Assembly: GCA_964373715.1 (NCBI GenBank)
Contig: CAYJVR010000002.1
Span: 182,937-246,936 of the forward strand
Direction: 5' to 3'
DNA: 64,000 nt
From: an uncultured Planctomycetia bacterium
GTDB taxonomy: Bacteria > Omnitrophota > Gorgyraeia > 1-14-0-20-64-10
Positions within the stretch are counted from its first letter, which is position 1; each line of letters starts with the position of its first letter. The notes under the pieces are model-generated. The model was not told the origin of the DNA, did not search any database, and worked only from the letters and a program-made list of their open reading frames with translations. The translations under genes were made by a program, and so were the position numbers. Below, in pieces: positions 2,602-47,825 of this stretch.

Positions 2602-2638
2602 TGCGCGATCCGGCGTGTCCGGCGGAGAAAACGGAGCA

Positions 2639-3214: not shown

Positions 3215-4078
3215 GTGCCTTCATTTATTAAAGAGACGTTCTTTAAAATCTACCGCAGGGGCACCCCTGATTCCGTTTGGCCGGTCGGAACGTCCCTCAA
3301 ACTGCCTACCCGCTTAAAGCAGATTGCCGTCATCAACCAGAAAGGAGGGTGCGGCAAGACCACGACTGCAGTTAATCTCTCCGCCTGTCTGGCTGAGTTG
3401 GGCGCACGCGTTTTATTGGTAGATGTGGATCCTCAGGCGCATGCCACGTTGGGTCTTGGGCTCCGCGCCGATGAGCTGGAGAGGTCCCTTTACAACGCGA
3501 TGCAGCCGGGCGGCTCCTCGGTCACGCAGGTGATTTTGCCGACGTATCATCCGAATCTAAAGCTTATCCCGGGCAGTTCCCTTCTGTCCTCCCTGCAAGT
3601 GGAATTGGTGGATAGACCGGGTCGCGAAAGGATTTTGGCGGACTGTTTAAGCCGGGTGGGCTCCGATTTCCACTTTGTCTTTATGGATTGTCCGCCGAGC
3701 CTGAACCTTCTGACGATCAACGCGCTGACGGCGGCCTCCCACGTCTTGATTCCGCTGCAGACCCACTACCTTTCTTTGGACGGGATGCGGGAATTGTTCA
3801 AAACGATTGAACTGGTGCAGGGGCAGATGAACCCTCACCTGGAGATCCTCGGTATTTTGCCGACGTTGTTTGATCACCGGACCCGGATGAACCGCGCGAT
3901 GCTGCAGACGATCAAGGAATATTTTCAGGGGAAGGTTTTTGACACTGTGATTCATCTGAGCACCTCGTTGACGGAATCCCCCATGATGGGGCAGCCGATT
4001 AGCCGGTACGCGCCCCAAAGCCGGGGGGCCAAAGATTATCAGGCGCTTGCCGAAGAGTTGTTGAGGTCCGATGCCTGA
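3215..4078 (+). CDS. ParA/MinD-family P-loop ATPase
   Basis: IAVINQKGGCGKTTTAVNLSACLAELGARVLLVDVDPQAHAT is a deviant Walker A (KGGxGKT) of the ParA/Soj/MinD family. The GTG start at 3215 is uncertain; there is about a 30-aa N-terminal extension before the Walker box. Confidence 0.75.
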   Translation: MPSFIKETFFKIYRRGTPDSVWPVGTSLKLPTRLKQIAVINQKGGCGKTTTAVNLSACLAELGARVLLVDVDPQAHATLGLGLRADELERSLYNAMQPGGSSVTQVILPTYHPNLKLIPGSSLLSSLQVELVDRPGRERILADCLSRVGSDFHFVFMDCPPSLNLLTINALTAASHVLIPLQTHYLSLDGMRELFKTIELVQGQMNPHLEILGILPTLFDHRTRMNRAMLQTIKEYFQGKVFDTVIHLSTSLTESPMMGQPISRYAPQSRGAKDYQALAEELLRSDA

Positions 4079-5387
4079 TCCTGAAAAGGAGCTGCCCGAC
4101 CTTCATAAGGTTTTCGACAGGATGTTCTCCAGGACGGCGAAAAAACAAGGCCCGCAGAAGCAGATCCTTTTTGAGCGCACCGACGGGCCAGGGGCTAAGA
4201 GGCCGTCGGCTAAAGAGACGAGAGGCAGCTCCGTCCATGCGGCGGCGCTTCAGGGGGGGCGGGCTCTTCTCTCAAGGTTTTCGTGGTCCGGAGCGGCCGG
4301 GTTTTCTTCAGTTGTTGGGGTTGATCTGGGAGCCAGCGCGCTGAAAGTTGTCTGCGTGAATACCGCCAAAGAATTCCCTCAGGTGACGGCGGTTATTTTA
4401 GAAGAGATGCCCCCGGGGCTGGATGAGCAAGGAAGAAAGGTTTTTTACCAGAAACATTTGAAGGCTCTTAAAAAACAGGGTATCTTAAACGGCCGCGTCG
4501 TGATGGGGGTTGTGGATGACCGGATGGCGGTGGAGATGGTGTCGATGCCCAAAATGCCGCAAGCCGATTTGGAAAAAGCCGTGATTTGGGAAGCGAAGGC
4601 CCGGATGGCGGCGGAAGCCTCTGCCTACTGCATCCGCCATCTCATTATAGAAGAGACGATGGTGGATGGGCAGCCGCATAAAGAGGTGCTGATCTTCGCG
4701 GTCCCTCGGGAGGAGATCGTCCAGCCGTACCAGCTAATCGCCGGGTACAATTCTCGCGTTACCGCTGCCGAACCGGGGATATTGGCTTCTGTCTCGGCGT
4801 TAGAGCAGGGAAGATTTATCCGGCAGGACCAGTTCATAGGGGTTCTGGATATCGGCAGCCGCCATTCGACGCTGGGTTTGATTTTCGGGGGCAAGGTCCG
4901 TTTCGTGCGGTCTTTTTCGGTGACCGGAGAGACGATCACGCAAAGTATTGTCCAGTACTGCAAGGTGAGCCAGGCCGAGGCGGAGGCCCAGAAGAAACAG
5001 AGAGGCCTTCCCCACGCAAAGGCACTAGAGTCGCACAAAGAGGGAGCGAGCGCGCATGTCGGCCTGCAGGCGGGCCATGCGATGACGCTCCATTTAGAGC
5101 AGCTGGCCACGGAATTGGATCATTCCCTGAGGTATGTGACCTACTATTCATTGGGGCGCGGCAAGGTTAACCGTTTGGACCGTCTTTTCTTGGTGGGCGG
5201 CGGCGCTTTACTGAAGAATCTCCCGGCTTTTTTGGAAAGCCGGCTGGACACGAAGGTCGAGGCGGCTGACCCGTTCCAGGAAGTCTCTGTATCGGATTTG
5301 GTTAAGCCTCAGATTGGCTCATTTGAACTGAAAGTCCGTATGGCGGCCGCGGTCGGTCTGGCGCTTCGCCCGATGGAAAAGGGATAA
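4071..5387 (+). CDS. pilM: Type IV pilus assembly protein PilM (actin-like ATPase fold) with an N-terminal extension
   Basis: VVGVDLGASALKVVCV..., GVLDIGSRHSTLGLIFGG... and LFLVGGGALLKNLPAFLESRL are the PilM/FtsA-like motifs. The gene immediately precedes pilN. Confidence 0.75.
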   Translation: MPDPEKELPDLHKVFDRMFSRTAKKQGPQKQILFERTDGPGAKRPSAKETRGSSVHAAALQGGRALLSRFSWSGAAGFSSVVGVDLGASALKVVCVNTAKEFPQVTAVILEEMPPGLDEQGRKVFYQKHLKALKKQGILNGRVVMGVVDDRMAVEMVSMPKMPQADLEKAVIWEAKARMAAEASAYCIRHLIIEETMVDGQPHKEVLIFAVPREEIVQPYQLIAGYNSRVTAAEPGILASVSALEQGRFIRQDQFIGVLDIGSRHSTLGLIFGGKVRFVRSFSVTGETITQSIVQYCKVSQAEAEAQKKQRGLPHAKALESHKEGASAHVGLQAGHAMTLHLEQLATELDHSLRYVTYYSLGRGKVNRLDRLFLVGGGALLKNLPAFLESRLDTKVEAADPFQEVSVSDLVKPQIGSFELKVRMAAAVGLALRPMEKG

Positions 5388-5391
5388 CGGA

Positions 5392-6036
5392 ATGGAACGG
5401 ATCAACCTGCTTCCGGAAGATTTGACGCTGACGCCGGTCAACCGGTTCATATACTCGGTGAACCAGAGGTTTTTTCCGACGTTGGGACGGACTTTAGCCG
5501 CCGCCGCCGGCCTGGTGTTTTTGGTTGCCGTTATCCAGATCTTTTTGACGCAGCATTACTTGTCGAGCACCGACCGGGTAAAACAGAAGAAAGCCAAGGC
5601 GGCGGTGGAACTGAAGAAGATGTCCGGCACCGTTGCCCGTTTAAGCCAAAGGGAAACCGAACTTTTGAGGCAGATGGAATGGCAGAATGAGAGGGTTCAG
5701 TATCTGAGAACCTATCAGGATTCGGCGGGGGAATGGTCGCCGGTTCTCGAGGAGGTCAAAAGCGCGCTTCCTTTCGGTGTTTGGCTGACCGAGTTGGAGG
5801 CAGACCCGAAGAGGACCCTGCGCGTGGCGGGCGGCGCTTTTGAAGAGGACCTGGTCGTCAAGTTTATGGGAGCGCTGAAGGAGACGCCGAAATTCCGAGA
5901 TGTGGCTTTTAATTTTACGAAAAAAGCCATCATCGGAAAAACAGGAGTCGTCCAGTTTGAAATCGTTTCGAAAGTTGCCGGGCCTCCGGAGCCGGCCGAG
6001 GGGATTGTGAAAGTTCCGCGGGTGACAACGCCATGA
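5392..6036 (+). CDS. pilN: Type IV pilus assembly protein PilN
   Basis: N-terminus MERINLLPEDL matches the canonical M.RINLLP PilN start. A single TM helix is followed by a coiled coil. Confidence 0.75.
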   Translation: MERINLLPEDLTLTPVNRFIYSVNQRFFPTLGRTLAAAAGLVFLVAVIQIFLTQHYLSSTDRVKQKKAKAAVELKKMSGTVARLSQRETELLRQMEWQNERVQYLRTYQDSAGEWSPVLEEVKSALPFGVWLTELEADPKRTLRVAGGAFEEDLVVKFMGALKETPKFRDVAFNFTKKAIIGKTGVVQFEIVSKVAGPPEPAEGIVKVPRVTTP

Positions 6037-6977
6037 GCAGCCTGATGGAGAGATTCAAGGGTTTTGAGCCCCGCTTCGGCCAGAGGGAAAAGGTGTGGGG
6101 TCTTTTCTTGGCGGCGGTGATGGTCGTTGTATGGGGCTCCAGAGTTGTTCTGAAGCCGCGCGCGGAGGCGTTCCGGGAAGCACGGCGGGATTCCCTCAAG
6201 GCGCATGATGAGTTGATCGAGATGGAGGCCCAGAAGCCGGACATGAACGAGCTCCGTGCCCGCATAAGGCAGCTGCAGTCCCAGGTGGGTTCCAGTTATA
6301 AGGAATTGGATAAGTTGGAGAAAGGCCTGTTGTACAGCCAGGATCAGGATCTGCTGCTGGAGCGCCTTGTGGCCGATAGAAAGAGATATGATCTTCAGAT
6401 CAACGCTGTGGAGCCGATCCGGGAAGATGCGCAGAAAACCCAGCAGACCCAAGCGTCTGCGACAGGGGCCTCCCGCGGTTTTTTTTACAAACAGCTTCTG
6501 GTCAAGGTGGATGCCTCCGCCACGTATAATAACTTGAGTTCCTATGTCAAAGTGCTGGAAGGCCAGGGGTCTTATCAAAAAGTGCGCGGTGTAAAGGTCG
6601 AGATGGACAAGGATGAAAAGGCGCTTCCCCGTGCCAAGGTGCTGATAGAGGTGTTGCTTTCTGACGCGCCGATGAAAAAGGCCGAAATGCGCGACAAGGT
6701 TTTTTCGATGATTGAGGAAGAGGAGTCCGCCGCCCGGGAAGCCAAAGATCCGTTTCTGGCACAGGAAAGGCCTCGGGAGGAAGAGGAGATGATCGGCCTG
6801 GAGCTGACAGGCATTTTCGGCGTCACCGGCAGGTTAACCGCACTCATTGATGGGAATGCTTATCAGGAGGGGGATGTGATACAGGGCAAACGGATCGTGA
6901 AGATCCTTTCCGACAAGGTTGTTTTCGAGCATGGAAACAAAAGGTACTTTCTGCACGAAAGCCCGGTGTCTCAATGA
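6033..6977 (+). CDS. PilO-like protein fused to a PilP-like C-terminal beta-domain
   Basis: An N-terminal TM segment and a coiled-coil region (PilO-like). The C-terminal LELTGIFGVTGRLTALIDGNAYQEGDVIQGKRIVKILSDKVVFEHG resembles the PilP/GspC core. The gene overlaps pilN and pilQ by 4 nt each, as expected in an operon. Confidence 0.55.
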   Translation: MSSLMERFKGFEPRFGQREKVWGLFLAAVMVVVWGSRVVLKPRAEAFREARRDSLKAHDELIEMEAQKPDMNELRARIRQLQSQVGSSYKELDKLEKGLLYSQDQDLLLERLVADRKRYDLQINAVEPIREDAQKTQQTQASATGASRGFFYKQLLVKVDASATYNNLSSYVKVLEGQGSYQKVRGVKVEMDKDEKALPRAKVLIEVLLSDAPMKKAEMRDKVFSMIEEEESAAREAKDPFLAQERPREEEEMIGLELTGIFGVTGRLTALIDGNAYQEGDVIQGKRIVKILSDKVVFEHGNKRYFLHESPVSQ

Positions 6978-8761
6978 GAATCGCTCGGGCTGTCTTTATC
7001 GTATTTTTTCTGTCATCGGCCTGTCCCGCGTGGGCGGACGCTCCGCAGGAAGAGGTGGCTGCTGTGGTGAAGGGAGAGTTTTCTCCGTTCCGTGCCGAGG
7101 CCGGTTTTTCGGCTGAACAGGCGCAGGGCTCCGCCGATTCCGCGCCCCTGTTGCCGCCCGACGCGACTCAGGCTGAACGGCTGAAAACGGTTGTGAACCT
7201 CTCCTTCACCAATGCGAACCTGAAGAACGTGTTGAGTTCCCTGGCTAAGATTTACGGGTTGAACATCGTCGCCGATGATGCGGTTGCCGGAACCGTCACC
7301 TTGACCCTGCGGGGGGTGACGTTAGAGGAAGGTTTGCGCCAGATGCTGAAACGCAACGGGTTCGGTTTCTCTGCGCGCGGGGAGATCCTGGAGGTCTCGA
7401 AACTTGAGGCCAAAAGGGGAGCCGGCGTCTTGATGGTCAATTACATTGATCTGGATACCGCGCTCGAATTCCTGCAGCCGATGGCTTCGCAGGGAGCCGT
7501 GCTGAAGGTGGATGAAACCTCCAACGGTATTCTGGTCAGCGATTACATGAGCCGGATTGAAGAGATGCGGGCCCTTTTGAAAGAGATAGACCAGCCGCCC
7601 CAGCAGGTTTTCATTGAGTCGAAGCTGATGGACATCACGCACAACGATCTGGACAACCTGGGCCTTGCGCTGTCTTCCGTGTCGAACACCTTGCCGCTGA
7701 AAGCCGGATCGAATCCTCTGGACCTCTCTTCCGGCGCTTTCAGCCTGGCGGGTCCGTCGAGCACCTTGTTGAATAAGGAGTTTCAGCTGACGATCGGGAG
7801 AGGGTCTGATTCGATTACCGCATCGCTGAACCTGTTGATTCAGAACAAGAAGGTGAAGGTCATCGCGAATCCGACCGTGCTGACGCTCAATAACTCCGAG
7901 GCGAGGATCATCATCGGCGAGAAATTCCCGATCCGCGAGCAGATGCAGACAACCACCGGCACTTTGGAAACAACCCGATTCGTGGATGTCGGAACGGCCC
8001 TGCGGGTAACGCCCCGGATCAACCCTGGCGGGACGATCCAGCTGCACATCCACCCGGAGGTCAGCTCGGTCAGCGCCACTCTTGAGGCGGGCCCCCGGAT
8101 TACGACCCGTGAAGCGGACACCACCGTTGTGGTAAAAAACGGGGAGCCGGTTGTCATCGGAGGCCTCATCCAGCAGGATGAGACACTCATCCGAGGCAGG
8201 ATCCCCTTCCTGGGGCACGTCCCCTTTTTGGGCCTCCTTTTCCAGAACCGGTCCAAAGACCACCAGCAGAAGGAATTGGTGATCGTAATCACACCGCACA
8301 TCGTCAAAACCACGATCGCCGAATCCAATCAGCCTTACACGGAAACCCACGATACGGCCGTCAAACTCGACGTGTTGGATCTGTTTTCCCAAGCGAAGTC
8401 GTTTGAGGAGGGAACAGGCATCCGGGCCCGGCAGACGCCGGAGACGCTGAGAAATCTTCAGGCGGTGGATCTGTACCAGAGGGTAGCAGACCGTTTCCCG
8501 ACCCATCCATACGCGATGGAATCTCTTTGGAGAATGGGTCTGCTGACGAGGGATAAGCTGTACGATTTGGACCGCTCGGAAGAGGCCTTCCGGCGGCTCG
8601 TGGGCCAGTTCCCCGACAGCAAATACAGAAATCCGGCCACACGGCAAATCAAGGAGATTGTTTGGCAGCGGGAACAGATCGCCAAAAGAGGCATTAAGGT
8701 GAAGGCTTTGGCGAGCGGGCAGCAGCAGAAGTCGTCTAAGACCAACATCCGACGCCGGTAG
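6974..8761 (+). CDS. pilQ: Type IV pilus secretin PilQ
   Basis: Signal peptide MRIARAVFIVFFLSSACPAWA. N0/N1-like domains are present. The secretin C-domain motifs are VKVIANPTVLTLNNSEARIIIGEKFPI and VVVKNGEPVVIGGLIQQDETLIRGRIPFLGHVPFLGLLFQNRSKDHQQKELVIVITPHIV. There is a C-terminal TPR-like tail. Confidence 0.85.
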   Translation: MRIARAVFIVFFLSSACPAWADAPQEEVAAVVKGEFSPFRAEAGFSAEQAQGSADSAPLLPPDATQAERLKTVVNLSFTNANLKNVLSSLAKIYGLNIVADDAVAGTVTLTLRGVTLEEGLRQMLKRNGFGFSARGEILEVSKLEAKRGAGVLMVNYIDLDTALEFLQPMASQGAVLKVDETSNGILVSDYMSRIEEMRALLKEIDQPPQQVFIESKLMDITHNDLDNLGLALSSVSNTLPLKAGSNPLDLSSGAFSLAGPSSTLLNKEFQLTIGRGSDSITASLNLLIQNKKVKVIANPTVLTLNNSEARIIIGEKFPIREQMQTTTGTLETTRFVDVGTALRVTPRINPGGTIQLHIHPEVSSVSATLEAGPRITTREADTTVVVKNGEPVVIGGLIQQDETLIRGRIPFLGHVPFLGLLFQNRSKDHQQKELVIVITPHIVKTTIAESNQPYTETHDTAVKLDVLDLFSQAKSFEEGTGIRARQTPETLRNLQAVDLYQRVADRFPTHPYAMESLWRMGLLTRDKLYDLDRSEEAFRRLVGQFPDSKYRNPATRQIKEIVWQREQIAKRGIKVKALASGQQQKSSKTNIRRR

Positions 8762-8779
8762 CCGCTCTCCCGCCCTCCT

Positions 8780-10006
8780 ATGGCCACCTTCCGTTACAAG
8801 GCCAGAGACAAAAAAGGGTCTCCGTTTGTCTCGACAGTCGAGGCGGACAGTCCGAAAGAGGTAGCCGACCTCTTGCGCAAGCAGGGACTCCAGATTATTT
8901 ATCTCGAAGAGCCTCAAAAAGATTATTCCGCCGCGCTTTATCAAGGGGTTCTTCAGCGCCTCAAGGCGGCCTCCCGTCCGGTCGAAGTTGTTCTGTTCAC
9001 GCGCCAGCTTGCGCTCATGGTCAGGGCGGGGTTGCCGCTGGTGGACGGCATCGAAGGGATTGCACAGCAGGACATTTCGCCGGCGCTGAAGATGGTGATT
9101 GGCTCTTTAAGCGAGAATCTCCGTTCCGGGAAAGCTTTCTCCGAGGCGCTCAGCCAGCACCCGGCCTTTTTCCCTGCATTCTATGTCAGCATGGTGAAGT
9201 CTGGCGAAACCGCGGGTATTCTCGAGGAGGTGCTGGAACGTTTGGCCGACATCGGCGAGAGAGGTATGGAATTGAAGGGGCGCGTCCGCGCCGCCTTGGC
9301 CTATCCGGTCCTGTTGGTCTTCCTTTCCTGCGGGATTGTGACTTTTTTGCTGGTCCATGTCCTGCCGAGATTTTTCCTGATTTTTGAAGAGTCGGGCGTT
9401 GTTCTTCCGCTGCCGACGAGGATACTGCTGGCGGTTAGTTTCTTGTTGCAGAAATGTTGGTTTCTCGTTCCACTCGGGTTGATCGCTGTTTTCTACGGTT
9501 TTCTCAAGATGAAGGCCAGGCCCGAAGGGCGTTACCGGATTGACGAGGCGATTTTGAGAATCCCTTTTTTGGGTCCCTTGCTTTTAAGAACGGTTTTTGC
9601 CCGCGCGTTCGGGATCATGGCCTCCCTTTTGAAAAGCGGGATCGCCGTTGTGCCGGCGCTTATCGTGGTGGAGGACCTGGTTGGCAATCAGGCGGTGGCC
9701 CGGGCCCTCGTTCGGGTCCGGGAGGCGGTGGTCGGGGGGGCCTCTCTCTCCGCGCCGTTTAGGGCGGAGAAGATATTCCCGCCGACAATCTCCCAGCTGG
9801 TTTCTGTCGGAGAAAGGACCGGATCGCTGGACGAAACGTTCAGGCACCTGGGGAATTATTATGAGAGAGAGGTGGAGCGGGCTTTGCGGATGATGACTTC
9901 GGTGCTCGAGCCTCTATTGCTGCTGGTGGTCGGTTCGCTCGTGGCCTTCATCGCCCTGTCGGTGCTGCTGCCGATATTCCAGTTGATCAAGGTCTTCAGA
10001 AGATAG
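8780..10006 (+). CDS. pilC: Type IV pilus platform protein PilC (GspF family)
   Basis: N-terminal MATFRYKARDKKG...VEADSPKEVADLLRKQGL is PilC-like. Two T2SS-F repeats and three predicted TM segments are present. Confidence 0.85.
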   Translation: MATFRYKARDKKGSPFVSTVEADSPKEVADLLRKQGLQIIYLEEPQKDYSAALYQGVLQRLKAASRPVEVVLFTRQLALMVRAGLPLVDGIEGIAQQDISPALKMVIGSLSENLRSGKAFSEALSQHPAFFPAFYVSMVKSGETAGILEEVLERLADIGERGMELKGRVRAALAYPVLLVFLSCGIVTFLLVHVLPRFFLIFEESGVVLPLPTRILLAVSFLLQKCWFLVPLGLIAVFYGFLKMKARPEGRYRIDEAILRIPFLGPLLLRTVFARAFGIMASLLKSGIAVVPALIVVEDLVGNQAVARALVRVREAVVGGASLSAPFRAEKIFPPTISQLVSVGERTGSLDETFRHLGNYYEREVERALRMMTSVLEPLLLLVVGSLVAFIALSVLLPIFQLIKVFRR

Positions 10007-10047
10007 AGGTTCCGGTCTTTTAACGGTTTTTATGGGAGGAGAATCGG

Positions 10048-10494
10048 ATGAAGCAACGGGGATTCACTCTGATGGAATTGCTGATCGTCATGACGATTAT
10101 CGCCATCCTTGCGGCGGCGATCATTCCGAATTTCATCGGGTTTGACGCCGAAGCTAAGGTAGCGGCCACAAAGTCGAATCTGGATACCCTGCGGTCGCGT
10201 GTGACTCTCTTTCGAGCGAAGGAGGGGAGATACCCGTCCTCTTTGGAGGAGCTGGTGCAGAAGTCGTATCTCGATGCCGGCGTCAAACGTCCTTACCTCA
10301 AGAAGATCCCTCTGGAGTTGGTGTCGAGCAAAAAAGGGAGCAGTGCCTCCGCTACGAGCACTTCGGAGGAATCCCTAGCCAACACCGGCGGCTGGGTCTA
10401 TGTCTCCGATACGGCCGAGATCCGGATCAACGTGTCGGAGCCTCTCGATAAATCATGGGGGGAATATGCCGGGCAAGTTCCCGCCGACTGGTAA
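10048..10494 (+). CDS. Type IV pilin with a class III prepilin signal (candidate major pilin)
   Basis: Leader MKQRG, then FTLMELLIVMTIIAILAAAIIPNF. This is the G|FTLxE prepilin peptidase site with Glu at +5. 148 aa. Confidence 0.75.
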   Translation: MKQRGFTLMELLIVMTIIAILAAAIIPNFIGFDAEAKVAATKSNLDTLRSRVTLFRAKEGRYPSSLEELVQKSYLDAGVKRPYLKKIPLELVSSKKGSSASATSTSEESLANTGGWVYVSDTAEIRINVSEPLDKSWGEYAGQVPADW

Positions 10495-10855
10495 CGCTGC
10501 CTCTTCGGTGCGATCTGAGAAAGGGGTGGCGTTGATCATAACCATTATTATTCTGCTGACGCTGGGGGCGCTCGGGGCCGCGCTCAGCGGTATGGTTAAT
10601 TCCCGCGTTCTTTCAGCCACCCTTGAGGTTGAACGGCTTCAGGCAGCCTATCTGGCGGAGGCTGGTTTGGCCAAGGCCCTCTATGAAATCTCGAATGACC
10701 GGGATATCTCGGGCAAGGACGGCATAGGCAAGATTCCGCCGACTCCGTACGGCCCCGGGTTTTTCCTGGTGGAGCATGACCCCGATAGCAGAAGCCTCCT
10801 CGGCATGGGTGTGGTGGGGGATGTGCGGCGCGTGATTGTTTCCCAATACGAATGA
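10463..10855 (+). CDS. Minor pilin-like protein (PilX N-terminal-like hydrophobic segment)
   Basis: EKGVALIITIIILLTLGALGAALSGMVNSRVLSATLEVERLQAAYLAEAGL resembles PilX/GspK-type N-termini. The start is uncertain (ATG at 10463, or a TTG near 10528). The gene overlaps the upstream pilin gene. Confidence 0.5.
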   Translation, partial: NMPGKFPPTGNAASSVRSEKGVALIITIIILLTLGALGAALSGMVNSRVLSATLEVERLQAAYLAEAGLAKALYEISNDRDISGKDGIGKIPPTPYGPGFFLVEHDPDSRSLLGMGVVGDVRRVIVSQYE

Positions 10856-10887
10856 CCCCACCACCTCTTTCAAAAGGTGGTGAGGTG

Positions 10888-11265
10888 ATGAAGAACGGTT
10901 CCTGCCGCGGGTTCACCTTCATCGAGGTGTTGATCACCCTCTTCATTTTGGCGGTTGCTGTGGCCCCCCTCATGCAGCTGTATGCTACCGCCGTCGAGCA
11001 GATCGGCTACACGGATGATGTGAGCACCGCGCTTGATCTGGCGAGGGAAGAGATTGAGAAGGTGAAGAACCTGGCCCTGACCGAAAGGCAGATCAAACAG
11101 ATGGGCAACATCATCAGCCCGCCCATCCGCCTTCAGAAAAGAACTTGGTACACAGTCCGGGTTGTGGATCCCGATCTGACCCCGCTGGAGGTCCAGGTCT
11201 ACGTTTACCGGGAGAAACTGAACGGCCCTCCGGTGGTCCAGCTGATGACGATTGTGAATAAATGA
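10888..11265 (+). CDS. Minor pseudopilin with a prepilin signal
   Basis: Leader MKNGSCRG, then FTFIEVLITLFILAVAVAPL. A GGTGAGG RBS lies 3 nt upstream. The track ORF starts earlier at 10852, but that start sits inside a hairpin. Confidence 0.6.
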   Translation: MKNGSCRGFTFIEVLITLFILAVAVAPLMQLYATAVEQIGYTDDVSTALDLAREEIEKVKNLALTERQIKQMGNIISPPIRLQKRTWYTVRVVDPDLTPLEVQVYVYREKLNGPPVVQLMTIVNK

Positions 11266-13579: not shown

Positions 13580-14509
13580 ATGAGATGCGGGGAGATTCAA
13601 GAGAGGTTGTCCGGTTGGATGGATGGGGAACTTTCCGGGGCGGAATCCTCGGAGGTGAAACTCCATCTCGGGGATTGCCCGGAGTGCAGCCGTATTCACG
13701 AATCGGTGAAACAGGCCTCGCACGCCTGCACGGCGATGAAAAGCCCCGTCCCCGCTGTTCCCGGAAATCTGCTGGAAAAGGTCCGGAACGTCCCGCAGTG
13801 GAAGATCCGGGCGGTTGTTTTCCGCCGCCCGCTTATTGCCGGGGCGCTGATTGGTTTGGCGGCCGGGGTTGTGAACATGGTTTCTTATCTGTCGGATCCT
13901 GTTCCGGTGGCGATGACCTACCGGTCGGGAGACAAGGTTGCCAGCGTGGTGAACACGCTGGTTCTTTTCCCGGGGATGAAAATTTCCACGCAGGAGAATG
14001 AGGAGGTGGAAGTCAGCATTCCCTCGGGGGCCGGATGGATCCGGCTCCACAGCCAGAGTTCCCTTTCTGTGCGGCGCGCCGGCATCCGGAAAATCGGCGG
14101 CCTACATGCTGTGGAACTAGAGCTTCCGAAAGGGGCGGTGTCGCTTTGGTTCCGTCCGGGGATCTTTCCTCACGACCTCAGGCTTGCCACTTCGCAGGCG
14201 ATGATCTGGCTGACCGGAACATGGGTTGAGGTCCATGCGATAGCCGGTTTGACCCGTGTCCGTGTTTTAAACGGGTTTGCCAGCGTCCGGAACCGGGCGA
14301 CCGGCGAACGGATGATTGTTCCGGCCGGAAATTGTGCCGAAATAGGGAGAAGGACATTCGCCCTCCGGAAGATTGTGGTAAAGAATCCGGAAACAGTTCC
14401 ATCTCTGGTAACAGGGCCGACAACAGGGCAAGGTGATCAGCAGGAAAAACCCCCGGGAGAAAATGGGCCAAACCCCGATTCTCCCCTTTGGTATGAGGTG
14501 GAAAAATGA
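13580..14509 (+). CDS. Anti-sigma factor (zf-HC2 N-terminal domain, a TM helix, FecR-like C-terminal domain)
   Basis: CGEIQERLSGWMDGELSGAESSEVKLHLGDCPECSRIHE is the RskA/ChrR-type zinc-finger anti-sigma motif. A TM helix RPLIAGALIGLAAGVV follows. The gene sits directly after the ECF sigma gene. Confidence 0.7.
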   Translation: MRCGEIQERLSGWMDGELSGAESSEVKLHLGDCPECSRIHESVKQASHACTAMKSPVPAVPGNLLEKVRNVPQWKIRAVVFRRPLIAGALIGLAAGVVNMVSYLSDPVPVAMTYRSGDKVASVVNTLVLFPGMKISTQENEEVEVSIPSGAGWIRLHSQSSLSVRRAGIRKIGGLHAVELELPKGAVSLWFRPGIFPHDLRLATSQAMIWLTGTWVEVHAIAGLTRVRVLNGFASVRNRATGERMIVPAGNCAEIGRRTFALRKIVVKNPETVPSLVTGPTTGQGDQQEKPPGENGPNPDSPLWYEVEK

Positions 14510-19047: not shown

Positions 19048-19148
19048 TTCAGAACGCCACTGGAGTCGTTGGGTTCGGAGCCGTCTAGAAGCGTCTTGAC
19101 GGACTGTTGGCCGAAAGAGTAAACTTTCATCCAGGTAAAGGAGGTTTT

Positions 19149-20924
19149 ATGCCGCCAGTCCGGCATATTGTAAAGCTGACGGGAGAGCGTCTCATCGAAA
19201 AAAAGCTGATTACGTCCGAGCAGCTTGAAAAGGCGCTTCGAAAACAGAAGACCGATTCCCGCCCGCTGGGTGAGATCCTCATCTCCGAGGGGATCCTCAC
19301 GGAAAATCAGTTGATGGAGGTGCTCAGCGAGCAGCTGGGCATCCCGTTCCTCAGCGTTGAGTTCTACGAGGTGGATAAGGAAGCCCTCGCTCTTTTCCCA
19401 AAAGATTTTCTCTGCGAACATCTGGCAATTCCCCTCTTTAAGGTCCACAACACCGTGACGGTGGCGATGGCCGATCCGCTCGATATCCGTACGGTGGATC
19501 GCCTAAGACTTCTTTCAAAATGCGAGATTCAGCCCGTTTTTGCGACCGAAATCGAGATTACAAGAGCGCTCGACCGGTTTTTCGGAGCGGGTGATTCTCT
19601 GGAGAGGGCGATTCAGGAAGCCGAGGCGGGCGTTAAGATGGCGTTGGGGGCGGGGCCCGCCGTTTCACCGGTAAAACCCGCGTGGGCTGGGGAAAAATCC
19701 CCTTCCGCGGAACAGGTCGAGGGGCTGGCCGCCGCCGCGGAGAAGGCGCCGATCGTCAGGCTGGTCGAGACTATCCTCCGGCAGGCGGTCGAAAGCCGGG
19801 CCAGCGATATCCACATCGAGCCGGATGAAGAGGCCTGCCGGGTGCGCTACCGGGTGGACGGCATCCTTTACGATGTTTCTCCGCCGCCGAAGCAACTGGA
19901 ACCTGCGATTATTTCAAGGCTAAAGATCATGGCTTCGCTCGATATTGCTGAGAGGCGCTTGCCTCAGGATGGCCGGATGCAGGTGAGGTTCGGCGATAGG
20001 GAGGTGGATTTCCGCATCTCCACTTTTCCGACGATCTACGGGGAGAATGTGGCAATCCGCGTGCTGGATAAAAGAGCGATTCTGCTGTCTCTGGAAGATC
20101 TTGGTTTTATGCCGGATGCGCTGCACAAATTCAAGAAATTGATCACTCGGCCTAACGGGATACTTTTGGTGACCGGTCCCACCGGCTCGGGCAAGACCAC
20201 CACCCTTTACGCGGCTTTAAGATTGGTTGACGCCGCCCAGCAGAACGTCATCACGCTGGAAGACCCGGTCGAGTACCGGATCCCAAGGGTCCGCCAGTCG
20301 CAGATTGACGTCAAGGCAGGGCTTACGTTCGCTTCGGGGCTGCGGTCCATCGTTCGCCAGGATCCCGATATCATCATGATCGGCGAGATCCGGGACAGGG
20401 AAACGGCGGAGATCGCCATCCACGCCGCCCTCACCGGCCATCTGGTTTTTTCCACCCTTCACACGAACGACGCGGCGGGAGCAATCGCGCGTTTGATTGA
20501 TATGGGGGTTGAGCCTTTTCTCGTGGCCTCCTCCCTGATCGGTGTTCTGGCCCAGCGGCTTGTGCGCACCCTTTGCCCGAAATGCAAGAAGCCTGAGAAC
20601 CTTCCGAAAGAGGGGTTGTTTTCTTTAGGCTTGAAAGAGTTGCCCCCCAAGACAGCGGTATTCCGGGCGGAAGGATGCGATGAGTGCAAGAAATCCGGCT
20701 ACAGAGGAAGAACCGGCATCTATGAATTGCTCGAGATGTCCGAACCGCTGAGGAACCTTACCGTTGCCAAAGCCTCTTCGGGCGACCTTCAGGCGCAGGC
20801 GGTCAAAGAGGGGATGGTGATCCTGCGGCAGGCGGGAGTGGCGAAGGTGATGGAGGGGATCACCACTATCGGTGAGATCCTGCGCAGCACCGACATCCAG
20901 CGGCCGTTGGACAACCAAAGCTGA
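19149..20924 (+). CDS. pilB: Type IV pilus assembly ATPase PilB (GspE family)
   Basis: AAGGAGG RBS, then the ATG at 19149. GspE N-terminal domains are present. Walker A is GPTGSGKTTTLYAAL. The zinc tetracysteine is CPKCKK...EGCDECKKSGYRGRTGIYELL. Confidence 0.85.
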   Translation: MPPVRHIVKLTGERLIEKKLITSEQLEKALRKQKTDSRPLGEILISEGILTENQLMEVLSEQLGIPFLSVEFYEVDKEALALFPKDFLCEHLAIPLFKVHNTVTVAMADPLDIRTVDRLRLLSKCEIQPVFATEIEITRALDRFFGAGDSLERAIQEAEAGVKMALGAGPAVSPVKPAWAGEKSPSAEQVEGLAAAAEKAPIVRLVETILRQAVESRASDIHIEPDEEACRVRYRVDGILYDVSPPPKQLEPAIISRLKIMASLDIAERRLPQDGRMQVRFGDREVDFRISTFPTIYGENVAIRVLDKRAILLSLEDLGFMPDALHKFKKLITRPNGILLVTGPTGSGKTTTLYAALRLVDAAQQNVITLEDPVEYRIPRVRQSQIDVKAGLTFASGLRSIVRQDPDIIMIGEIRDRETAEIAIHAALTGHLVFSTLHTNDAAGAIARLIDMGVEPFLVASSLIGVLAQRLVRTLCPKCKKPENLPKEGLFSLGLKELPPKTAVFRAEGCDECKKSGYRGRTGIYELLEMSEPLRNLTVAKASSGDLQAQAVKEGMVILRQAGVAKVMEGITTIGEILRSTDIQRPLDNQS

Positions 20925-21138: not shown

Positions 21139-22581
21139 TTACTGCTTCTGGGCGGAGCCGTAGAGAGTGAGATGAGTTTTCGCGACCTCTTCCGACACAA
21201 TGCCTTGCGCCACCAGGTGGCGAATGGATTTTTCCAGCGTCTGCATATGGTGCGCGGCGCCGGTTTCAATCACGGTGTAGATCTGGGACAGTGAGTTGGT
21301 CCGGATATAGGTGCGGGCCGCGTCGGTCGGCATAAAGACTTCGGTGGCCAGCACTCTGCCGGCCCCGCTGATCTCTTCGCGCGGCAGCAGGTACTGGGTC
21401 AAGATTCCCCTCAGGCAGTTTCCCAGTTGGAGTGCTATTTGAGACCGATGCTGGGAGGACACGAGGGAAAGGAACCGGTCAATCGCCTGGATGGTGTTTG
21501 CCGCGTGGAAAGAGGCCATAACAAGGTTGCCGCTTTCGGCCGCGTTTAAGACGATCTGGGCCGTCTCCGCGTCCTCAATTTCTCCCACGACAATGATGTT
21601 TGGGTCCTGCCGCAGTGCGCGGCGGACCGCCTCCGCGTAGGAAAGAGTGTCGGTTCCGATCTCCCTTTGCTTGATTACGGATTTGATGTTCTGGTGCACG
21701 TACTCAATCGGTCTTTCCAAACAGATGATAACCGCTTCCCTCTCCTGGTTAATCGTGTGGACAAGGCTGTTGAGCGTGGTTGTTTTTCCGGCCCCTGTCG
21801 GTCCGGCGATGAGGATCAGCCCATTGGGAGAACGCGTCCATTCCACAACCGCAGAGGGTATTCCCAATTTCTCTGCGGAAGAAACGTGCGACGGAATGAC
21901 CCGGATGGCCGTCTCCACCTGATTGCGTTGCCAGTGGAGGTTGAACCGGAATCTCTCTGACAGGGAAAGAGAGTAGGCAAAATCCAGCTCCCTCTGCTCT
22001 TCGAAGGTCTCGATTTGTTTCTGCGACATGATGCCGTAGATAATGGCCCGGATCTCTCCCGGTTTGAAAGGAGGCCAGTTTAAAGGAACCAAGTGGTCTC
22101 CCACCCGGGCGATGGGGGGCTGGCCTGTCGTTAAGTGAAGATCAGACCCCCGTTGTTTCACCAAAGCTTGCAGAAGCCGTTGGAGATCAAACGTCTCCAT
22201 GCGGGTCAAAAACTCGACCTGCTGCACCGGTTCAATATGGTCGAATGAGACGCCTAAGAGATACCTTTGCGCGAATTCCTCTTCTTCTACCCGGACGATG
22301 CGTCCGGTAGCGTACAGCTCCCCCTTGGTCCACGGCACTTGAATCTGGATCCTTAGTATTGTGCCCATTTCCAGGGTTTGTTGTGTCCGCAGGAGGACCC
22401 CTTTTGTGCTGAGATCAATAGTCGATGCGGGGTTGATGGGGCCTGTCGTTTTGCCTGCTTCGACGAGTTGGTAGGTGGCGGGGCAGGTTAGATGGATGCG
22501 ATGAGAGAGCCTGGTTTCTTTAAGCCGCTGCGGTTCTTCAGCTTCTTTTTCTTTGATTTCTTTGTTTATGTCATCCGCCAC
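21139..22581 (-). CDS. pilT: Twitching-motility retraction ATPase PilT with an N-terminal PilZ (c-di-GMP-binding) domain fused
   Basis: GTG start with an AGGAGG RBS. The N-terminal 120 aa carry the PilZ motifs RLSHR (RxxxR) and DLSTKG (DxSxxG). The PilT core follows: IAGPTGAGKTTTLNSL Walker A, Asp/His boxes, ...VVGEIEDAETAQIVLNAAESGNLVMASFHAANT. Confidence 0.8.
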   Translation of the reverse strand: MADDINKEIKEKEAEEPQRLKETRLSHRIHLTCPATYQLVEAGKTTGPINPASTIDLSTKGVLLRTQQTLEMGTILRIQIQVPWTKGELYATGRIVRVEEEEFAQRYLLGVSFDHIEPVQQVEFLTRMETFDLQRLLQALVKQRGSDLHLTTGQPPIARVGDHLVPLNWPPFKPGEIRAIIYGIMSQKQIETFEEQRELDFAYSLSLSERFRFNLHWQRNQVETAIRVIPSHVSSAEKLGIPSAVVEWTRSPNGLILIAGPTGAGKTTTLNSLVHTINQEREAVIICLERPIEYVHQNIKSVIKQREIGTDTLSYAEAVRRALRQDPNIIVVGEIEDAETAQIVLNAAESGNLVMASFHAANTIQAIDRFLSLVSSQHRSQIALQLGNCLRGILTQYLLPREEISGAGRVLATEVFMPTDAARTYIRTNSLSQIYTVIETGAAHHMQTLEKSIRHLVAQGIVSEEVAKTHLTLYGSAQKQ

Positions 22582-22686
22582 GAGCTTTATCCTCCTGTTC
22601 AGGATGAAGATTGCTTCTCAAACCGAATAACCCTTTGCTAGTATGGAGTAAATGGAACAATTCTGTCAAGGTAAGAACCTCCCGGC

Positions 22687-23697
22687 ATGAGATGGCTTGT
22701 GGTAGGCGCGGGGGCCATCGGTTCGGTGGTCGGAGGGCTGCTCGCCCGTGCGGGAGAGGAGGTCTGGCTGCTGGGCAGACCCTGGCACCTGGACCGGGTC
22801 AGGGAGAAAGGGCTTTTTATTCGCGGGTTCCTCGGGGAGCACCGGGTGACCTCCTGCCATTTGGCCGAAGGCACCCATCAGCTGCCAGCGCTCCAATGGG
22901 ATGTCATCCTTGTCGCGGTCAAATCCTATTCCACTGAGCAGGCGGCAGAGCTTCTGCCTCCCCTGCTGTCTTTGTCTACAAAAGTAGTTTCTCTTCAAAA
23001 CGGTTTGGGCAACTGGGAGTTTCTTTCCCGATACGTTCCTCCGGGCCAGCTGGTCGGAGGGCGGGTGATTTTCGGAGTGGAGCTGAAGCCGGGAGTGGCC
23101 ACAGTCACCGTGTGGGGCGGGGATATACTGTTGGGGCCGGTCTTTTCGCAGATGAAGGGAGAGGAGGTCGAACCGATTGCTCAGAGATTGTCAGCCGCTG
23201 GACTCCCTTCCAGGGTGACGCCAACCATAAAGGAAGCGCTGTGGTCCAAGGTGATTTACAACAGTTGTTTGAATCCTCTCTCCACCCTCCTGGAGGTTCC
23301 TTACGGCCGGCTTTTGGAGACGGAGGAGACTCGCCGGATAATGAAGCAGGTGGCTCGAGAAGCTTATGAGGTGGCTCAGGCTGAGAAACTTGAGTTGGAA
23401 CCTTCTTCGCCGGATGCTTATGTAGAGGAGCTTTTCAGCCGTTTAATCCCTGCCACGGCGGCGCACCATCCTTCGATGCTTCAGGATATCCATCTTGGCA
23501 GGCGGACCGAGATCGATTTCCTCAACGGGGCTCTGGTCCGGCTGGCGGCGGCCCGCAGGATTCCTGCGCCGGCGAACGAGTTTTTAACAGGGCTGATCAA
23601 AGCCAAGGAGAACTTTTCGAGGCTGCCGGGGTCTCATTCAGAGAAAGAAAAAATCACCTCTTCAAGGCGGGAAGATGGGACCGATTACCGAGACTGA
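22687..23697 (+). CDS. panE: 2-dehydropantoate 2-reductase (ketopantoate reductase, PanE/ApbA family)
   Basis: Rossmann N-terminus MRWLVVGAGAIGSVVGGLLARAG. The C-terminal PSMLQDIHLGRRTEIDFLNGALV matches the PanE signature. It has an unusual 40-aa C-terminal tail that overlaps the next gene. Confidence 0.7.
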   Translation: MRWLVVGAGAIGSVVGGLLARAGEEVWLLGRPWHLDRVREKGLFIRGFLGEHRVTSCHLAEGTHQLPALQWDVILVAVKSYSTEQAAELLPPLLSLSTKVVSLQNGLGNWEFLSRYVPPGQLVGGRVIFGVELKPGVATVTVWGGDILLGPVFSQMKGEEVEPIAQRLSAAGLPSRVTPTIKEALWSKVIYNSCLNPLSTLLEVPYGRLLETEETRRIMKQVAREAYEVAQAEKLELEPSSPDAYVEELFSRLIPATAAHHPSMLQDIHLGRRTEIDFLNGALVRLAAARRIPAPANEFLTGLIKAKENFSRLPGSHSEKEKITSSRREDGTDYRD

Positions 23698-24271
23698 CGA
23701 CAAAGAGCTGGTCCGGCTCGCCCAGCAGGGGGACAGAGGCGCGTTTGATGCCCTCATGTTGAAATACCAGGGGCAGATTATCGGGTTGGCGTACAGGATG
23801 CTCGACAATATGGATGAGGCAGCGGATATCGCGCAGGAGGCTTTTTTCCGGGCTTACCGGGGGTTGAACGGTTTCCGCCGGGAGGCGGCTTTCAGGACCT
23901 GGCTCTACGGGATCACGATCAACCTGGTCCGGCACAAGCGGCGCTGGCACAGCCGGCATAGGACGTCCCAGACTTTTTCGATTACTTTGCCCGAGGAGGA
24001 GGGTTTGGAATCCTCTGCGGCGGAGGAGATCCCGGACCCCGCGCCGGACCCGAGACGGCGGGCGGCCGTCGGGGAGGCTAACGCCAGGGTATCGGAGGCT
24101 CTCGGCAGGTTGCCTGCGCCGCTGAGAACGGTGGTGCTCTTGCGCGACGTGAACGGGTTGCCTTATGAGGAGATTGCCCAGATCTGCAAAGAAAATATCG
24201 GCACCGTGAAATCCCGTCTTCACCGGGGGAGGGGGATGCTGCGGGAGATGCTTGGAGGGATGGAACGATGA
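23675..24271 (+). CDS. ECF-type sigma-70 factor (second copy)
   Basis: LVRLAQQGDRGAFDALMLKYQGQIIGLAYRMLDNMDEAADIAQEAFFRAYRGLNGFRREAAFRTWLYGITINL plus a region-4 HTH (PYEEIAQICKENIGTVKSRLHRGR). Confidence 0.8.
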   Translation: MGPITETDDKELVRLAQQGDRGAFDALMLKYQGQIIGLAYRMLDNMDEAADIAQEAFFRAYRGLNGFRREAAFRTWLYGITINLVRHKRRWHSRHRTSQTFSITLPEEEGLESSAAEEIPDPAPDPRRRAAVGEANARVSEALGRLPAPLRTVVLLRDVNGLPYEEIAQICKENIGTVKSRLHRGRGMLREMLGGMER

Positions 24272-25326
24272 ACTGCGCCAGATATCGTGACCAGTTTTCG
24301 CTTTACCTGGAAGGGGAACTGACAGCCGACCGGAAAGCGGAGATGGAAAACCATCTGAAAGACTGTGCCGCCTGCTCTGCTGAGTTGAAGGCGATGCGCA
24401 AGCTGGTCGCAGAATTGAAAGGACTGCCTCAGCCGGTCGTGCCGGATGGGTTCAGGCAGGGGGTCTGGAACCGGATCAATGCTCCGGCGCCGTGGGCCCG
24501 GTTGCTCGGGGTTTTCGATTCCTGGTTCGTGAAGCTGCCGGTCGGGGCGCTCGCGACGGCTGCCGTTGCCCTTTTAGTGATCAATGTTTTTCATTCCGCC
24601 GGTCCCGAGATGATGGACATGAATAAAAGCCGGCTTGAAGCGCCTGCCTCCGTGGCGGGTAAAACCGATTTGGCTGAGAAAGAACACCTGAATGTCATGG
24701 ATGCTGTTGTGGAGGAGGCCTCAAGAAAACAGGGGAAGCTGAAGGAAAACATTGGCCAATTCCGCCGGACAATGCAAAGCTCTTCCGACAAGAAAGAAGG
24801 TTCACAGAGGGGAGATTTTGCAGGTTCGGATCTTTTTACCGGCCGGGAAGCGGTGATGGAGGCGGAGATGGCCAAAGAGGCCGTTGTTTCCGCGCCGAAA
24901 CCGGCGGCGCCGGCGCTTCAGCCTGTTGCCGAGCCTGCCAAGAGGAGAACCGCTGTTCCTCTGGATGGAAAAGATGATGAGGATGATTCCGTGCGGAACG
25001 AAGTTTCTGAGCGGCAGAGATGGCCGGAAGTAGACTATGTCTGCCTCCGATCGGCCGATCTGCCCGCGGCGGAACAGGCGGTTGTACAGTTCCTCAAGGA
25101 GGTCCCGGTCCAAGAAGTCAGCTGGCCGCTGCCGACCCGGTATTCCCTCACGATGACTTCCGAACAGTTTGATCTCCTTATCGCCCGGCTGAAGAAGCTC
25201 GGAGAGGTGGAAATCCAGCAACCGGCCTTTGAGGGCCGAATGAAAGCCGATGGGAAAAAAGAGCAGCCCGAGCTCAAACGGGTTATTTTGGACCTCCTGC
25301 CTGCGAAAACTCTGGAAAAAGATTAA
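24268..25326 (+). CDS. Anti-sigma factor (zf-HC2 N-terminus and a single TM helix)
   Basis: CARYRDQFSLYLEGELTADRKAEMENHLKDCAACSAELKAM, then the TM helix LPVGALATAAVALLVINVF. Translationally coupled to the sigma gene by a 4-nt overlap. Confidence 0.65.
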   Translation: MNCARYRDQFSLYLEGELTADRKAEMENHLKDCAACSAELKAMRKLVAELKGLPQPVVPDGFRQGVWNRINAPAPWARLLGVFDSWFVKLPVGALATAAVALLVINVFHSAGPEMMDMNKSRLEAPASVAGKTDLAEKEHLNVMDAVVEEASRKQGKLKENIGQFRRTMQSSSDKKEGSQRGDFAGSDLFTGREAVMEAEMAKEAVVSAPKPAAPALQPVAEPAKRRTAVPLDGKDDEDDSVRNEVSERQRWPEVDYVCLRSADLPAAEQAVVQFLKEVPVQEVSWPLPTRYSLTMTSEQFDLLIARLKKLGEVEIQQPAFEGRMKADGKKEQPELKRVILDLLPAKTLEKD

Positions 25327-47405: not shown

Positions 47406-47825
47406 ATGCTCGCGATGGGGGCCTCAGTAGGCACATCCAAGCCTCTCGTTGAGCGGCGCCGGTATAGGCGACTGAACTCCCATGCTCCAGTTCAATTCCG
47501 TAACGTTTTAAAACCTCAAGAGCTATTCGACGGAACCCTTTCCAAAGATATAAGCGCTGGCGGTCTTTGCATGACCACCGAAAATTTTATTTCCCCGGAA
47601 TCAAGGCTTGTTCTTCTGGTCTCCCTTCCCGGAACTTTAAAATCGATTCGGCTCATCTGTCAGGTGACCTGGACTCAGCAGCAGCGATTTGCCGATGGCT
47701 ATGAATGCGGGGTTGAGTTTATCGAAATCAACCCGGAGGACCGCCAGGAGATAGATTCTTTCGTCCAACGCGCTCGAGAGGTCTCTTCGGCCACCTACAC
47801 GCAGTCCAAGCGCCTGTCCGCGTAG
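47406..47825 (+). CDS. Stand-alone PilZ-domain c-di-GMP receptor
   Basis: RRRYRR (RxxxR) followed by DISAGG (DxSxxG), then a beta-barrel-type C-terminal region. AAAGGAG RBS. Confidence 0.6.
   Translation: MLAMGASVGTSKPLVERRRYRRLNSHAPVQFRNVLKPQELFDGTLSKDISAGGLCMTTENFISPESRLVLLVSLPGTLKSIRLICQVTWTQQQRFADGYECGVEFIEINPEDRQEIDSFVQRAREVSSATYTQSKRLSA

Follow-up and report, generated by a model that had tools for sequence, protein, structure and literature searches.

We found that a 64-kb stretch of contig CAYJVR010000002.1 from an uncultured bacterium of the Omnitrophota (positions 182,937 to 246,936 of the forward strand; this whole stretch is the window referred to below) encodes a protein in which a canonical PilZ domain is joined to a complete PilT/PilU-family ATPase. 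Both motifs for binding cyclic diguanylate (c-di-GMP) are intact and conserved, the predicted fold of the N-terminal part is that of PilZ, the junction between the two parts is of fixed length, and the gene is associated with a type IVa pilus cluster. A familiar sensor is thereby found on a type of motor that had not previously been reported to carry one. On balance, we consider it probable that this PilT-family hexameric motor with its canonical PilZ domain serves the adjacent type IVa pilus machine as a retraction-type motor gated by c-di-GMP. Targeted full-text searches of the open-access literature returned no description of a PilZ-PilT fusion, and no such protein appeared in reviews on PilZ domains and on PilB control or in the main genomics paper on Omnitrophota. 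Public records give fusions of this kind no name other than 'PilT/PilU family type 4a pilus ATPase', so that the PilZ sensor is invisible in current annotation.

The PilZ domain and its junction with PilT

The gene, its upstream signals and the N-terminal parts of its product are as follows.

21139..22581, minus strand: PilZ-PilT fusion gene, 480 amino acids (aa), GTG start, uninterrupted; from the list of open reading frames (ORFs)
22591..22596, minus strand: Shine-Dalgarno sequence AGGAGG, 9 nucleotides 5' of the GTG, read directly in the sequence
22640..22669, minus strand: sigma-70-like promoter match TTGACA-18-CATACT, 10 of 12 consensus positions, from a consensus scan alone
22516..22581, minus strand: N-terminal tail, residues 1-22, acidic/basic, of variable length among homologues, with a predicted local distance difference test score (pLDDT) of 47-62
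22498..22512, minus strand: RxxxR motif R24-L-S-H-R28, the first c-di-GMP-binding motif, in the N-terminal loop
22399..22416, minus strand: [D/N]hSxxG motif D56-L-S-T-K-G61, the second c-di-GMP motif as defined in bioRxiv 10.1101/814665
22192..22515, minus strand: canonical PilZ domain, residues 23-130, from PF07238 and AlphaFold2, with six strands (34-117) and a C-terminal helix (119-130)
22132..22245, minus strand: fixed-length junction, residues 113-150, comprising the last PilZ strand, the PilZ helix, a two-residue turn and the first PilT helix (133-142)

A first-pass annotation made from the sequence alone had read 21139..22581 as a single ORF, and it is one, of 480 aa on the minus strand. 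Since the AGGAGG supports the annotated GTG start, the RxxxR motif lies inside the protein. A start codon 3' of RxxxR was considered and rejected, because the first in-frame Met after the GTG is residue 72, within the PilZ barrel, a strong Shine-Dalgarno sequence precedes the GTG, and the alignment with homologues begins at residue 1. The promoter consensus match suggests that the fusion gene has a promoter of its own. An artefact of gene calling or assembly, i.e., two merged genes, was likewise rejected, because more than 80 sequence clusters, derived from independent assemblies, contain the fusion with a junction of constant length. In a search of 5.8 billion proteins, an identical protein (P0001) was found in public assemblies, where the contig bearing it is as long as 315 kb.

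By every criterion testable here, the N-terminus is a canonical PilZ domain, in which, by the definition of Galperin and Chou (bioRxiv 10.1101/814665), an extended N-terminal loop precedes a six-stranded barrel and a C-terminal helix. Pfam PF07238 matched residues 23-121, scoring 37.0 bits with the whole protein and 39.9 bits with the isolated N-terminus, above its gathering cut-off of 22.5, and a profile search with the N-domain collected 15,059 proteins at E<=1e-3, the top matches being free, di- and tri-PilZ proteins. When the whole protein was modelled with AlphaFold2 from an alignment of 71 sequences, the mean pLDDT was 91.8 and the predicted template-modelling score (pTM) 0.82. Predicted strands at residues 34-41, 44-57, 61-66, 75-81, 88-102 and 106-117 were followed by a helix at 119-130, all with pLDDT >90, and the RxxxR segment fell in the low-confidence N-terminal loop. 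Residues 1-134 modelled alone gave the same fold (pLDDT 84). Comparison of the N-domain model with the PDB by Foldseek placed PilZ domains in all of the first 36 positions (probability 1.0, query TM-score 0.43-0.65), among them BcsA, MotI, Alg44, PP4397, VCA0042, YcgR, MrkH and PlzA, the majority solved with c-di-GMP. Sequence searches against the PDB were weak: single-sequence phmmer with the N-domain gave chance matches only (a GDP-mannose dehydratase at E ~0.7), and in a profile search E was 0.14-0.3, yet the top four matches were PilZ proteins. It is the fold comparison by Foldseek that settles the question of the fold.

RLSHR and DLSTKG had been singled out in the first-pass annotation as the two c-di-GMP signatures, and they stand at residues 24-28 and 56-61 with typical spacing. 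R28 and D56 are 28 residues apart, which is also the modal offset among 148 other PilZ-profile matches, most of which have offsets of 18-29. Thus, the three computational checks proposed there, namely a PilZ hidden Markov model search, an AlphaFold model of the barrel and the distance between RxxxR and DxSxxG, all came out in favour of a PilZ domain whose nearest solved structures are bound to c-di-GMP.

To these we can add the record of conservation in 71 full-length homologues, 39-86% identical, that carry both PF07238 and PF00437 and were drawn from the same search of 5.8 billion proteins; counts out of 71 below refer to this alignment. R24 is retained in 66/71, R28 in 68/71, D/N56 in 69/71, S58 in 61/71 and G61 in 71/71; position 57 is hydrophobic (I/L/V) in all 71, and F113, the conserved Phe of the last PilZ strand, is present in 70. 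Identity within the PilZ part drops to 21% in a 31-sequence subset. Since the motifs are kept in 71 homologues down to 39% identity, the PilZ motif match is not due to chance, and the alignment indicates that both c-di-GMP motifs are under strong purifying selection in the fusion family. The motif columns are also conserved in 220 non-fusion PilZ domains, where the R of RxxxR is near-universal. Binding of c-di-GMP by the PilZ domain of the fusion is a putative function.

The same canonical fold and motifs occur in the nearest structures solved, those of YcgR/MotI, BcsA and Alg44, in which ligand binding leads to a mechanical or catalytic change in a machine. In these proteins, PilZ has a PilZN/PilZNR partner domain or forms the C-terminal end of a synthase, with RxxxR in the interdomain linker, whereas the fusion has PilZ at its N-terminus, RxxxR within a free tail and a PilT-type ATPase as the output. 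The PilZ-FimX-PilB system of Xanthomonas and Pseudomonas (PMC8389850, PMC11656802) is similar to the fusion in that a PilZ-fold module and c-di-GMP feed into a pilus motor. It differs in that its PilZ protein is non-canonical, without both motifs, and binds the extension ATPase, while c-di-GMP is sensed by the EAL domain of FimX. PilZ-fold proteins that do not bind the ligand and act on pilus ATPases exist, and the best PDB profile match to the N-domain by sequence was one of the non-binders, XC1028, albeit at an E of only 0.14. It could be argued on these grounds that the domain has lost c-di-GMP binding and has only a structural or protein-binding role, as does the PilZ protein of Xanthomonas/Pseudomonas. 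We consider this very improbable: such PilZ proteins are without RxxxR and [D/N]hSxxG (10.1101/814665), both of which are near-invariant in the fusion family, and it is the canonical binders that the predicted fold resembles most.

The junction, which begins with the last PilZ strand and extends as far as the third element of the PilT N-domain (residues 113-150), showed zero length variation in 71/71 homologues. In the AlphaFold2 model, it consists of helix 119-130, a two-residue turn and helix 133-142, with pLDDT of 87-95, and E129 within it is nearly invariant. The connection between PilZ and PilT is accordingly predicted to be rigid, with no flexible linker or tether. Four residues, Q38, E99, E100 and E129, are conserved in the fusions and not in the 220 free PilZ domains; they are candidate residues of an intramolecular interface.

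The closest biological precedent of the fusion is the reported interaction of a free PilZ protein, XC_2249, with both PilT and PilU in Xanthomonas campestris (review PMC3749722). In each case a PilZ domain is tied to retraction ATPases. As what may be viewed as a covalent, 'Rosetta stone' version of this association, the fusion supports the trans interaction reported in Xanthomonas. Unlike XC_2249, which acts in trans as part of an HD-GYP/GGDEF complex and for which c-di-GMP binding is reportedly dispensable, the fusion is covalent, with a rigid junction and conserved motifs. This precedent also speaks for a different role, in which the PilZ domain would mainly be an adaptor or localisation module that tethers the motor to PilB, PilM, a GGDEF/HD-GYP protein or the cell pole in a c-di-GMP-dependent manner and leaves catalysis unchanged. 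The eponymous PilZ protein binds the N-terminal domain of PilB as well as FimX (PMC11656802), and stand-alone PilZ genes adjoin the fusion in two related loci, L085 and, together with a GAF-HD_5 protein, L081. The rigid junction of invariant length and the conserved surface residues specific to fusions better fit an intramolecular allosteric contact, and strong conservation of the binding motifs implies that the ligand matters; we regard a purely adaptor role as quite unlikely.

The ATPase core and the fusion family

The second part of the protein contains the following features.

21178..22185, minus strand: PilT/PilU-family ATPase (TIGR01420), N-terminal PAS-like plus RecA-like ATPase domain, residues 133-468
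21781..21804, minus strand: Walker A GPTGAGKT (260-267); G260, G265 and K266 invariant in 71 homologues
21703..21717, minus strand: Asp box E289-R290-P-I-E293 (canonical PilT: E-D-P-I-E), from the alignment
21571..21594, minus strand: Walker B and catalytic Glu, IIVVGEIED (G333, E334; both invariant), with E336 in place of the GEMRD Arg
21496..21516, minus strand: His box ASFHAAN (H359); H in 68/71 fusions and in 112/112 non-fusions
21298..21321, minus strand: AIRNLIRE-like AARTYIRT (421-428), aligned with AIRNLIRE of Geobacter PilT4

As judged by every criterion that could be tested here, the core belongs to the PilT/PilU family. The TIGR01420 pilT_fam model matched residues 133-468 at 361.8 bits (cut-off 319.1), covering profile positions 2-335 of 343, and TIGR02538 gave only 101 bits. 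The best PDB match by sequence was Geobacter PilT4 (5zfq, 270 bits), followed by the PilT proteins of Aquifex and of P. aeruginosa (256 bits), while PilU scored 204 bits; by sequence, the core is therefore nearer PilT than PilU. The full model gave Foldseek target TM-scores of 0.84-0.90, with root-mean-square deviations of 1.9-3.2 A, against PilT4, PaPilT, AaPilT and PilU, and in the same comparison no PDB entry spanned both the PilZ and the PilT parts. The stand-alone PilT proteins (Geobacter PilT4 5zfq/6ojx, P. aeruginosa 3jvu, Aquifex 2ewv) are ~37-40% identical to residues 131-468. In contrast to them, the fusion has an extra 130-residue PilZ part, R290/E336 and a partial AIRNLIRE, and falls into a separate clade. 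K266, E334, E289 and E293 are present and invariant in the family, and H359 is found in 68/71, such that the catalytic motifs of the window protein appear intact. The first-pass reading of a PilZ domain fused in frame to a complete PilT core is consequently borne out, as Walker A, the catalytic Glu and the His box are all in place.

Two positions set the fusions apart. At Asp-box position 290, the 112 non-fusion PilT cores have D (107) or E (5), whereas R is present in 37/71 fusions; at the position of the GEMRD Arg, R is found in 111/112 non-fusion cores vs 1/71 fusions. As a pair, 290/336 is D/R in 106/112 non-fusion cores. The window protein has R290/E336, and among the fusions the pair is charge-swapped (R/E, R/D or K/E) in 38/71 and combines D or N with an uncharged residue in 31/71. 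The charge swap suggests that positions 290 and 336 touch, and the pair looks like a clade-specific, compensated salt bridge near the active site. AARTYIRT keeps the A, R, I and R of AIRNLIRE and loses N, L and E; the consensus of the fusion family is A-x-R-N-x-I-R.

Pilus motors with a c-di-GMP sensor of their own are known in V. cholerae MshE and P. aeruginosa PA14_29490 (PMC4624772, PMC5013675), which, like the fusion, are hexameric motors of the secretion superfamily and carry that sensor at the N-terminus, an arrangement that lets the messenger act on the motor itself; in this respect the fusion would work in the same way as that class. In the MshE class, however, the sensor is the helical MshEN and the motor is of the PilB/GspE type, whereas the fusion combines a PilZ beta-barrel with a PilT-type motor. 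Since sensor fold and motor type both differ, the fusion falls outside the MshEN ATPase class. Indeed, neither MshEN nor NF053729 matched the fusion protein, and both matched the neighbouring PilB. The PilT of V. cholerae is listed as a c-di-GMP non-binder in the table of a 2023 review (PMC10333796).

To place the family, a neighbour-joining tree was computed from 183 PilT cores, of which 71 belonged to the fusions, 82 came from 80 genomes spread over many phyla and 30 were halves of tandem double-PilT proteins. The 71 fusions formed an exclusive clade, and its sister group comprised a 348-aa Omnitrophota PilT and a Planctomycetia PilT. With ten more divergent fusions from a search of 1.84 billion representative proteins, all 81 again formed one clade (bootstrap 39/100). 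Neighbour-joining with such weak deep support suggests a single origin of the fusion cores. A survey of PilZ-PilT fusions had been proposed with the first-pass annotation, and it shows the architecture to recur in more than 80 sequence clusters. A profile search of genome contigs with the full-length alignment gave at least 80 PilT cores from many phyla, and none among the matches listed reached the PilZ part; these loci were used as the outgroup of the tree. Many tandem double-PilT proteins of ~710-790 aa without PilZ (P0032-P0074 and others) are among the closest relatives of the core and served as outgroups in the tree.

Sources named for the fusions are Candidatus Omnitrophota/Omnitrophica, 'PVC group bacterium' and 'bacterium', two candidate division Zixibacteria entries and one 'Patescibacteria group' metagenome-assembled genome (MAG). 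Named carriers are therefore mostly Omnitrophota with some Zixibacteria, and the family is common in Omnitrophota. The Zixibacteria fusions and some of those without a source name keep the canonical ED and GE-x-RD residues. In two divergent members, P0203 (a JGI record) and P0266 (an Omnitrophota MAG), the PilZ motifs are kept and Walker B (LDQ, VSQ) and the His boxes are broken; from their sequences, these are probably catalytically dead, sensor-only derivatives.

Genomic context and proposed mode of action

The pilus genes of the window that bear on the function of the fusion are listed here.

4071..11265, plus strand: type IVa pilus cluster of pilM, pilN, an ORF, secretin, pilC and pilins (Pfam PilM_2, PilN, Secretin, T2SSF, N_methyl)
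19107..20924, plus strand: PilB-type extension ATPase, convergent with the fusion (TIGR02538 634 bits; Pfam MshEN, T2SSE)
19182..19334, plus strand: MshE-type c-di-GMP motif region in the N-terminus of PilB, residues 26-76 (NF053729 66.4 bits vs 38)

The order on the plus strand is two receivers, a ParA-like ATPase, pilM, pilN, an ORF, secretin, pilC, pilins, an extracytoplasmic function (ECF) sigma/anti-sigma pair, a 1513-aa LamG protein and PilB. The fusion gene and pilB converge and are 215 bp apart. By tblastn, PilB and the fusion are the only two secretion-type ATPases in the 64-kb window, and the fusion is its sole PilT-family gene, although the pilM-N-Q-C-pilin-pilB set there is complete. 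The MshE region of PilB keeps the 24+5+24 layout, its halves ending at Q47 and Q76.

If the fusion is a c-di-GMP-gated motor of this machine, we infer ligand binding, allosteric coupling and its direction, and retraction of this particular pilus to proceed along the following lines. By analogy with the matched structures, c-di-GMP would be clamped by the RxxxR loop (R24, R28) on one side and by the turn D56-L-S-T-K-G61 on the other. Binding would then shift the PilZ C-terminal helix (119-130), a helix proposed as the read-out of c-di-GMP binding (Galperin and Chou, 10.1101/814665), which runs via the rigid two-residue turn into the first helix of the PilT N-domain. Since the two helices are continuous, the shift could reach PilT and might there alter inter-subunit packing of the hexamer or the way it docks on the PilC/PilM platform.

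As a rule, c-di-GMP promotes piliation and adhesion, and where PilZ proteins have a motor as their target, as YcgR and MotI do, they are brakes. For both of these reasons, the former exemplified by MshE and by the MSHA pilus of V. cholerae, where c-di-GMP favours extension over retraction (PMC7096442), the most likely direction by analogy would be inhibition of retraction at high c-di-GMP. With an MshEN-type PilB adjoining, this could amount to reciprocal control, with extension switched on and retraction off. A more far-reaching version, which we put forward as possible though doubtful, is that, within one type IVa pilus machine, PilB would sense c-di-GMP by its MshEN region and the PilT-type motor by its PilZ domain, so that a single messenger would set the balance of extension and retraction at the motors themselves, without adaptors; the D/R pair would have been rewired so that catalysis depends on PilZ, and in ultra-small, host-attached Omnitrophota the system would be a switch between reaching for a host and pulling onto it.

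The sign of the effect could also be the opposite, with c-di-GMP activating the motor or licensing its docking, so that a rise, e.g., on host contact, would trigger retraction and pull the ultra-small cell onto its partner. PilZ activates output in BcsA and Alg44, both among the top structural matches, a host-attached or predatory life has been proposed for Omnitrophota, in which type IVa pili abound (PMC10066038), and loss of the D/R pair near the active site could mean a basally inactive motor in need of an activator. The general effect of c-di-GMP on piliation and the braking action of YcgR and MotI speak against activation, and turning on both PilB and PilT by c-di-GMP would give futile cycling. 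We therefore think activation unlikely and retain inhibition as the preferred direction.

Several observations weigh against a c-di-GMP-gated retraction motor of the adjacent pilus. For the direction of regulation, analogy allows no more than a guess. The position of RxxxR, in a free N-terminal tail and not in an interdomain linker, makes the route of coupling less obvious than in YcgR or BcsA. In PilB, the position-1 Arg of both MshEN halves is displaced by one residue (K23-L24, R52-P53), which makes c-di-GMP binding by PilB uncertain and, therefore, leaves the idea of reciprocal control unproven as well. Regular-expression and Pfam scans of essentially all ORFs of at least 100 aa found no GGDEF, EAL or HD-GYP gene, and no diguanylate cyclase or phosphodiesterase, in the 64-kb window. 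The core scores just above the TIGR01420 cut-off, where canonical Omnitrophota PilTs reach 460-490 bits with the same model. Because it is without the near-invariant pair of Asp-box D and GEMRD R, we do not class the fusion as a canonical PilT orthologue. Of five other genomes examined, four have the fusion in a housekeeping neighbourhood in which the nearest 4 kb are free of pilus genes; it follows dnaE in L081 and gyrA in L085, and stands amid unrelated genes in L086. Lastly, in the related genome L084, a fusion scoring 410 bits is located ~6 kb from a pilB(MshEN)-pilT-pilC-pilS operon that has its own canonical 359-aa PilT (TIGR01420 490 bits).

Since L084 has the fusion beside a canonical pilB-pilT-pilC operon, the fusion may be an extra paralogue rather than "the" PilT, as the first-pass annotation had called it; membership of the PilT family stands, and the definite article was too strong for a divergent clade with a canonical pilT alongside it in a related genome. 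On this reading, the fusion would be an accessory paralogue that does not retract the neighbouring pilus. It might instead help in the manner of PilU, act as a regulator or drive a different fibre, any of which would be compatible with c-di-GMP sensing. The separate clade of the fusion cores, the altered D/R pair, the partly kept AIRNLIRE, the broken Walker B and His boxes of P0203 and P0266 and the low score of the window protein (362 bits) beside those of L084 are all consistent with such a role. Against it, the window contains no PilT-family gene other than the fusion, which directly adjoins pilB; the core of the fusion is nearer PilT than PilU in sequence, and its catalytic residues are intact. 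An accessory role is, in our estimation, a possibility to be kept in mind, although not a probable one. We regard the finding as real and its interpretation as sound at the level of domains, with the qualification that the protein may be a specialised paralogue.

The known c-di-GMP inputs into a cell's choice between extension and retraction of its pili are on the extension side (MshE/PilB, FimX). A natural PilZ-PilT protein offers a single polypeptide for the in vitro study of c-di-GMP control of a retraction-type motor. Omnitrophota are known only as uncultured, probably host-dependent nanobacteria, and since the fusion is common in them and type IVa pili are thought to be central to their attachment, it points to c-di-GMP as a regulator of the Omnitrophota lifestyle.

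Neighbouring genes and other observations in the window

Two further sets of genes had been named in the first-pass annotation, a stand-alone PilZ protein and three single-domain receivers, and each was found at its place.

47406..47825: stand-alone PilZ (PF07238 51.3 bits; RRYRR and DISAGG)
2197-2601, plus strand: single-domain receiver
2615-3076, plus strand: single-domain receiver
34099-34488, minus strand: single-domain receiver

The stand-alone PilZ gene of the window is canonical and follows ComEC (45731-47825). In related loci, the stand-alone PilZ genes are just 3' of the fusion, at 11686-12069 in L085 and within 14896-16792 in L081, where the neighbouring GAF-HD_5 protein is possibly an HD-GYP protein. 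Two receivers and the ParA/MinD-like ATPase (2197-4078) are directly 5' of pilM and may be a positioning or regulatory module for the pilus machine. ECF sigma/zf-HC2 anti-sigma pairs at 12897-14509 and 23675-25326 flank the pair of pilB and the PilZ-pilT gene; the region from the second of these through the leucyl-tRNA synthetase gene is syntenic with locus L082, which carries a 58%-identical homologue of the fusion. The 1513-aa LamG protein (14506-19047), between the first sigma/anti-sigma pair and pilB, could be a pilus-associated adhesin.

Elsewhere in the window, a 2587-aa ORF with Metallophos and poly(A)-polymerase-head domains occupies 37543-45306, and a 1566-aa ORF with several helix-turn-helix domains as well as methyltransferase, ROK and HATPase_c_2 domains occupies 54107-58807. 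The release factor 2 gene (58861-59977) contains a programmed +1 frameshift, which in this gene is classical and well known. It starts with ATG at 58861 and carries GGAGG TAT CTT TGA C with an in-frame TGA at 58930-58932, and its body follows in the +1 frame, where an ORF is listed from 59033.

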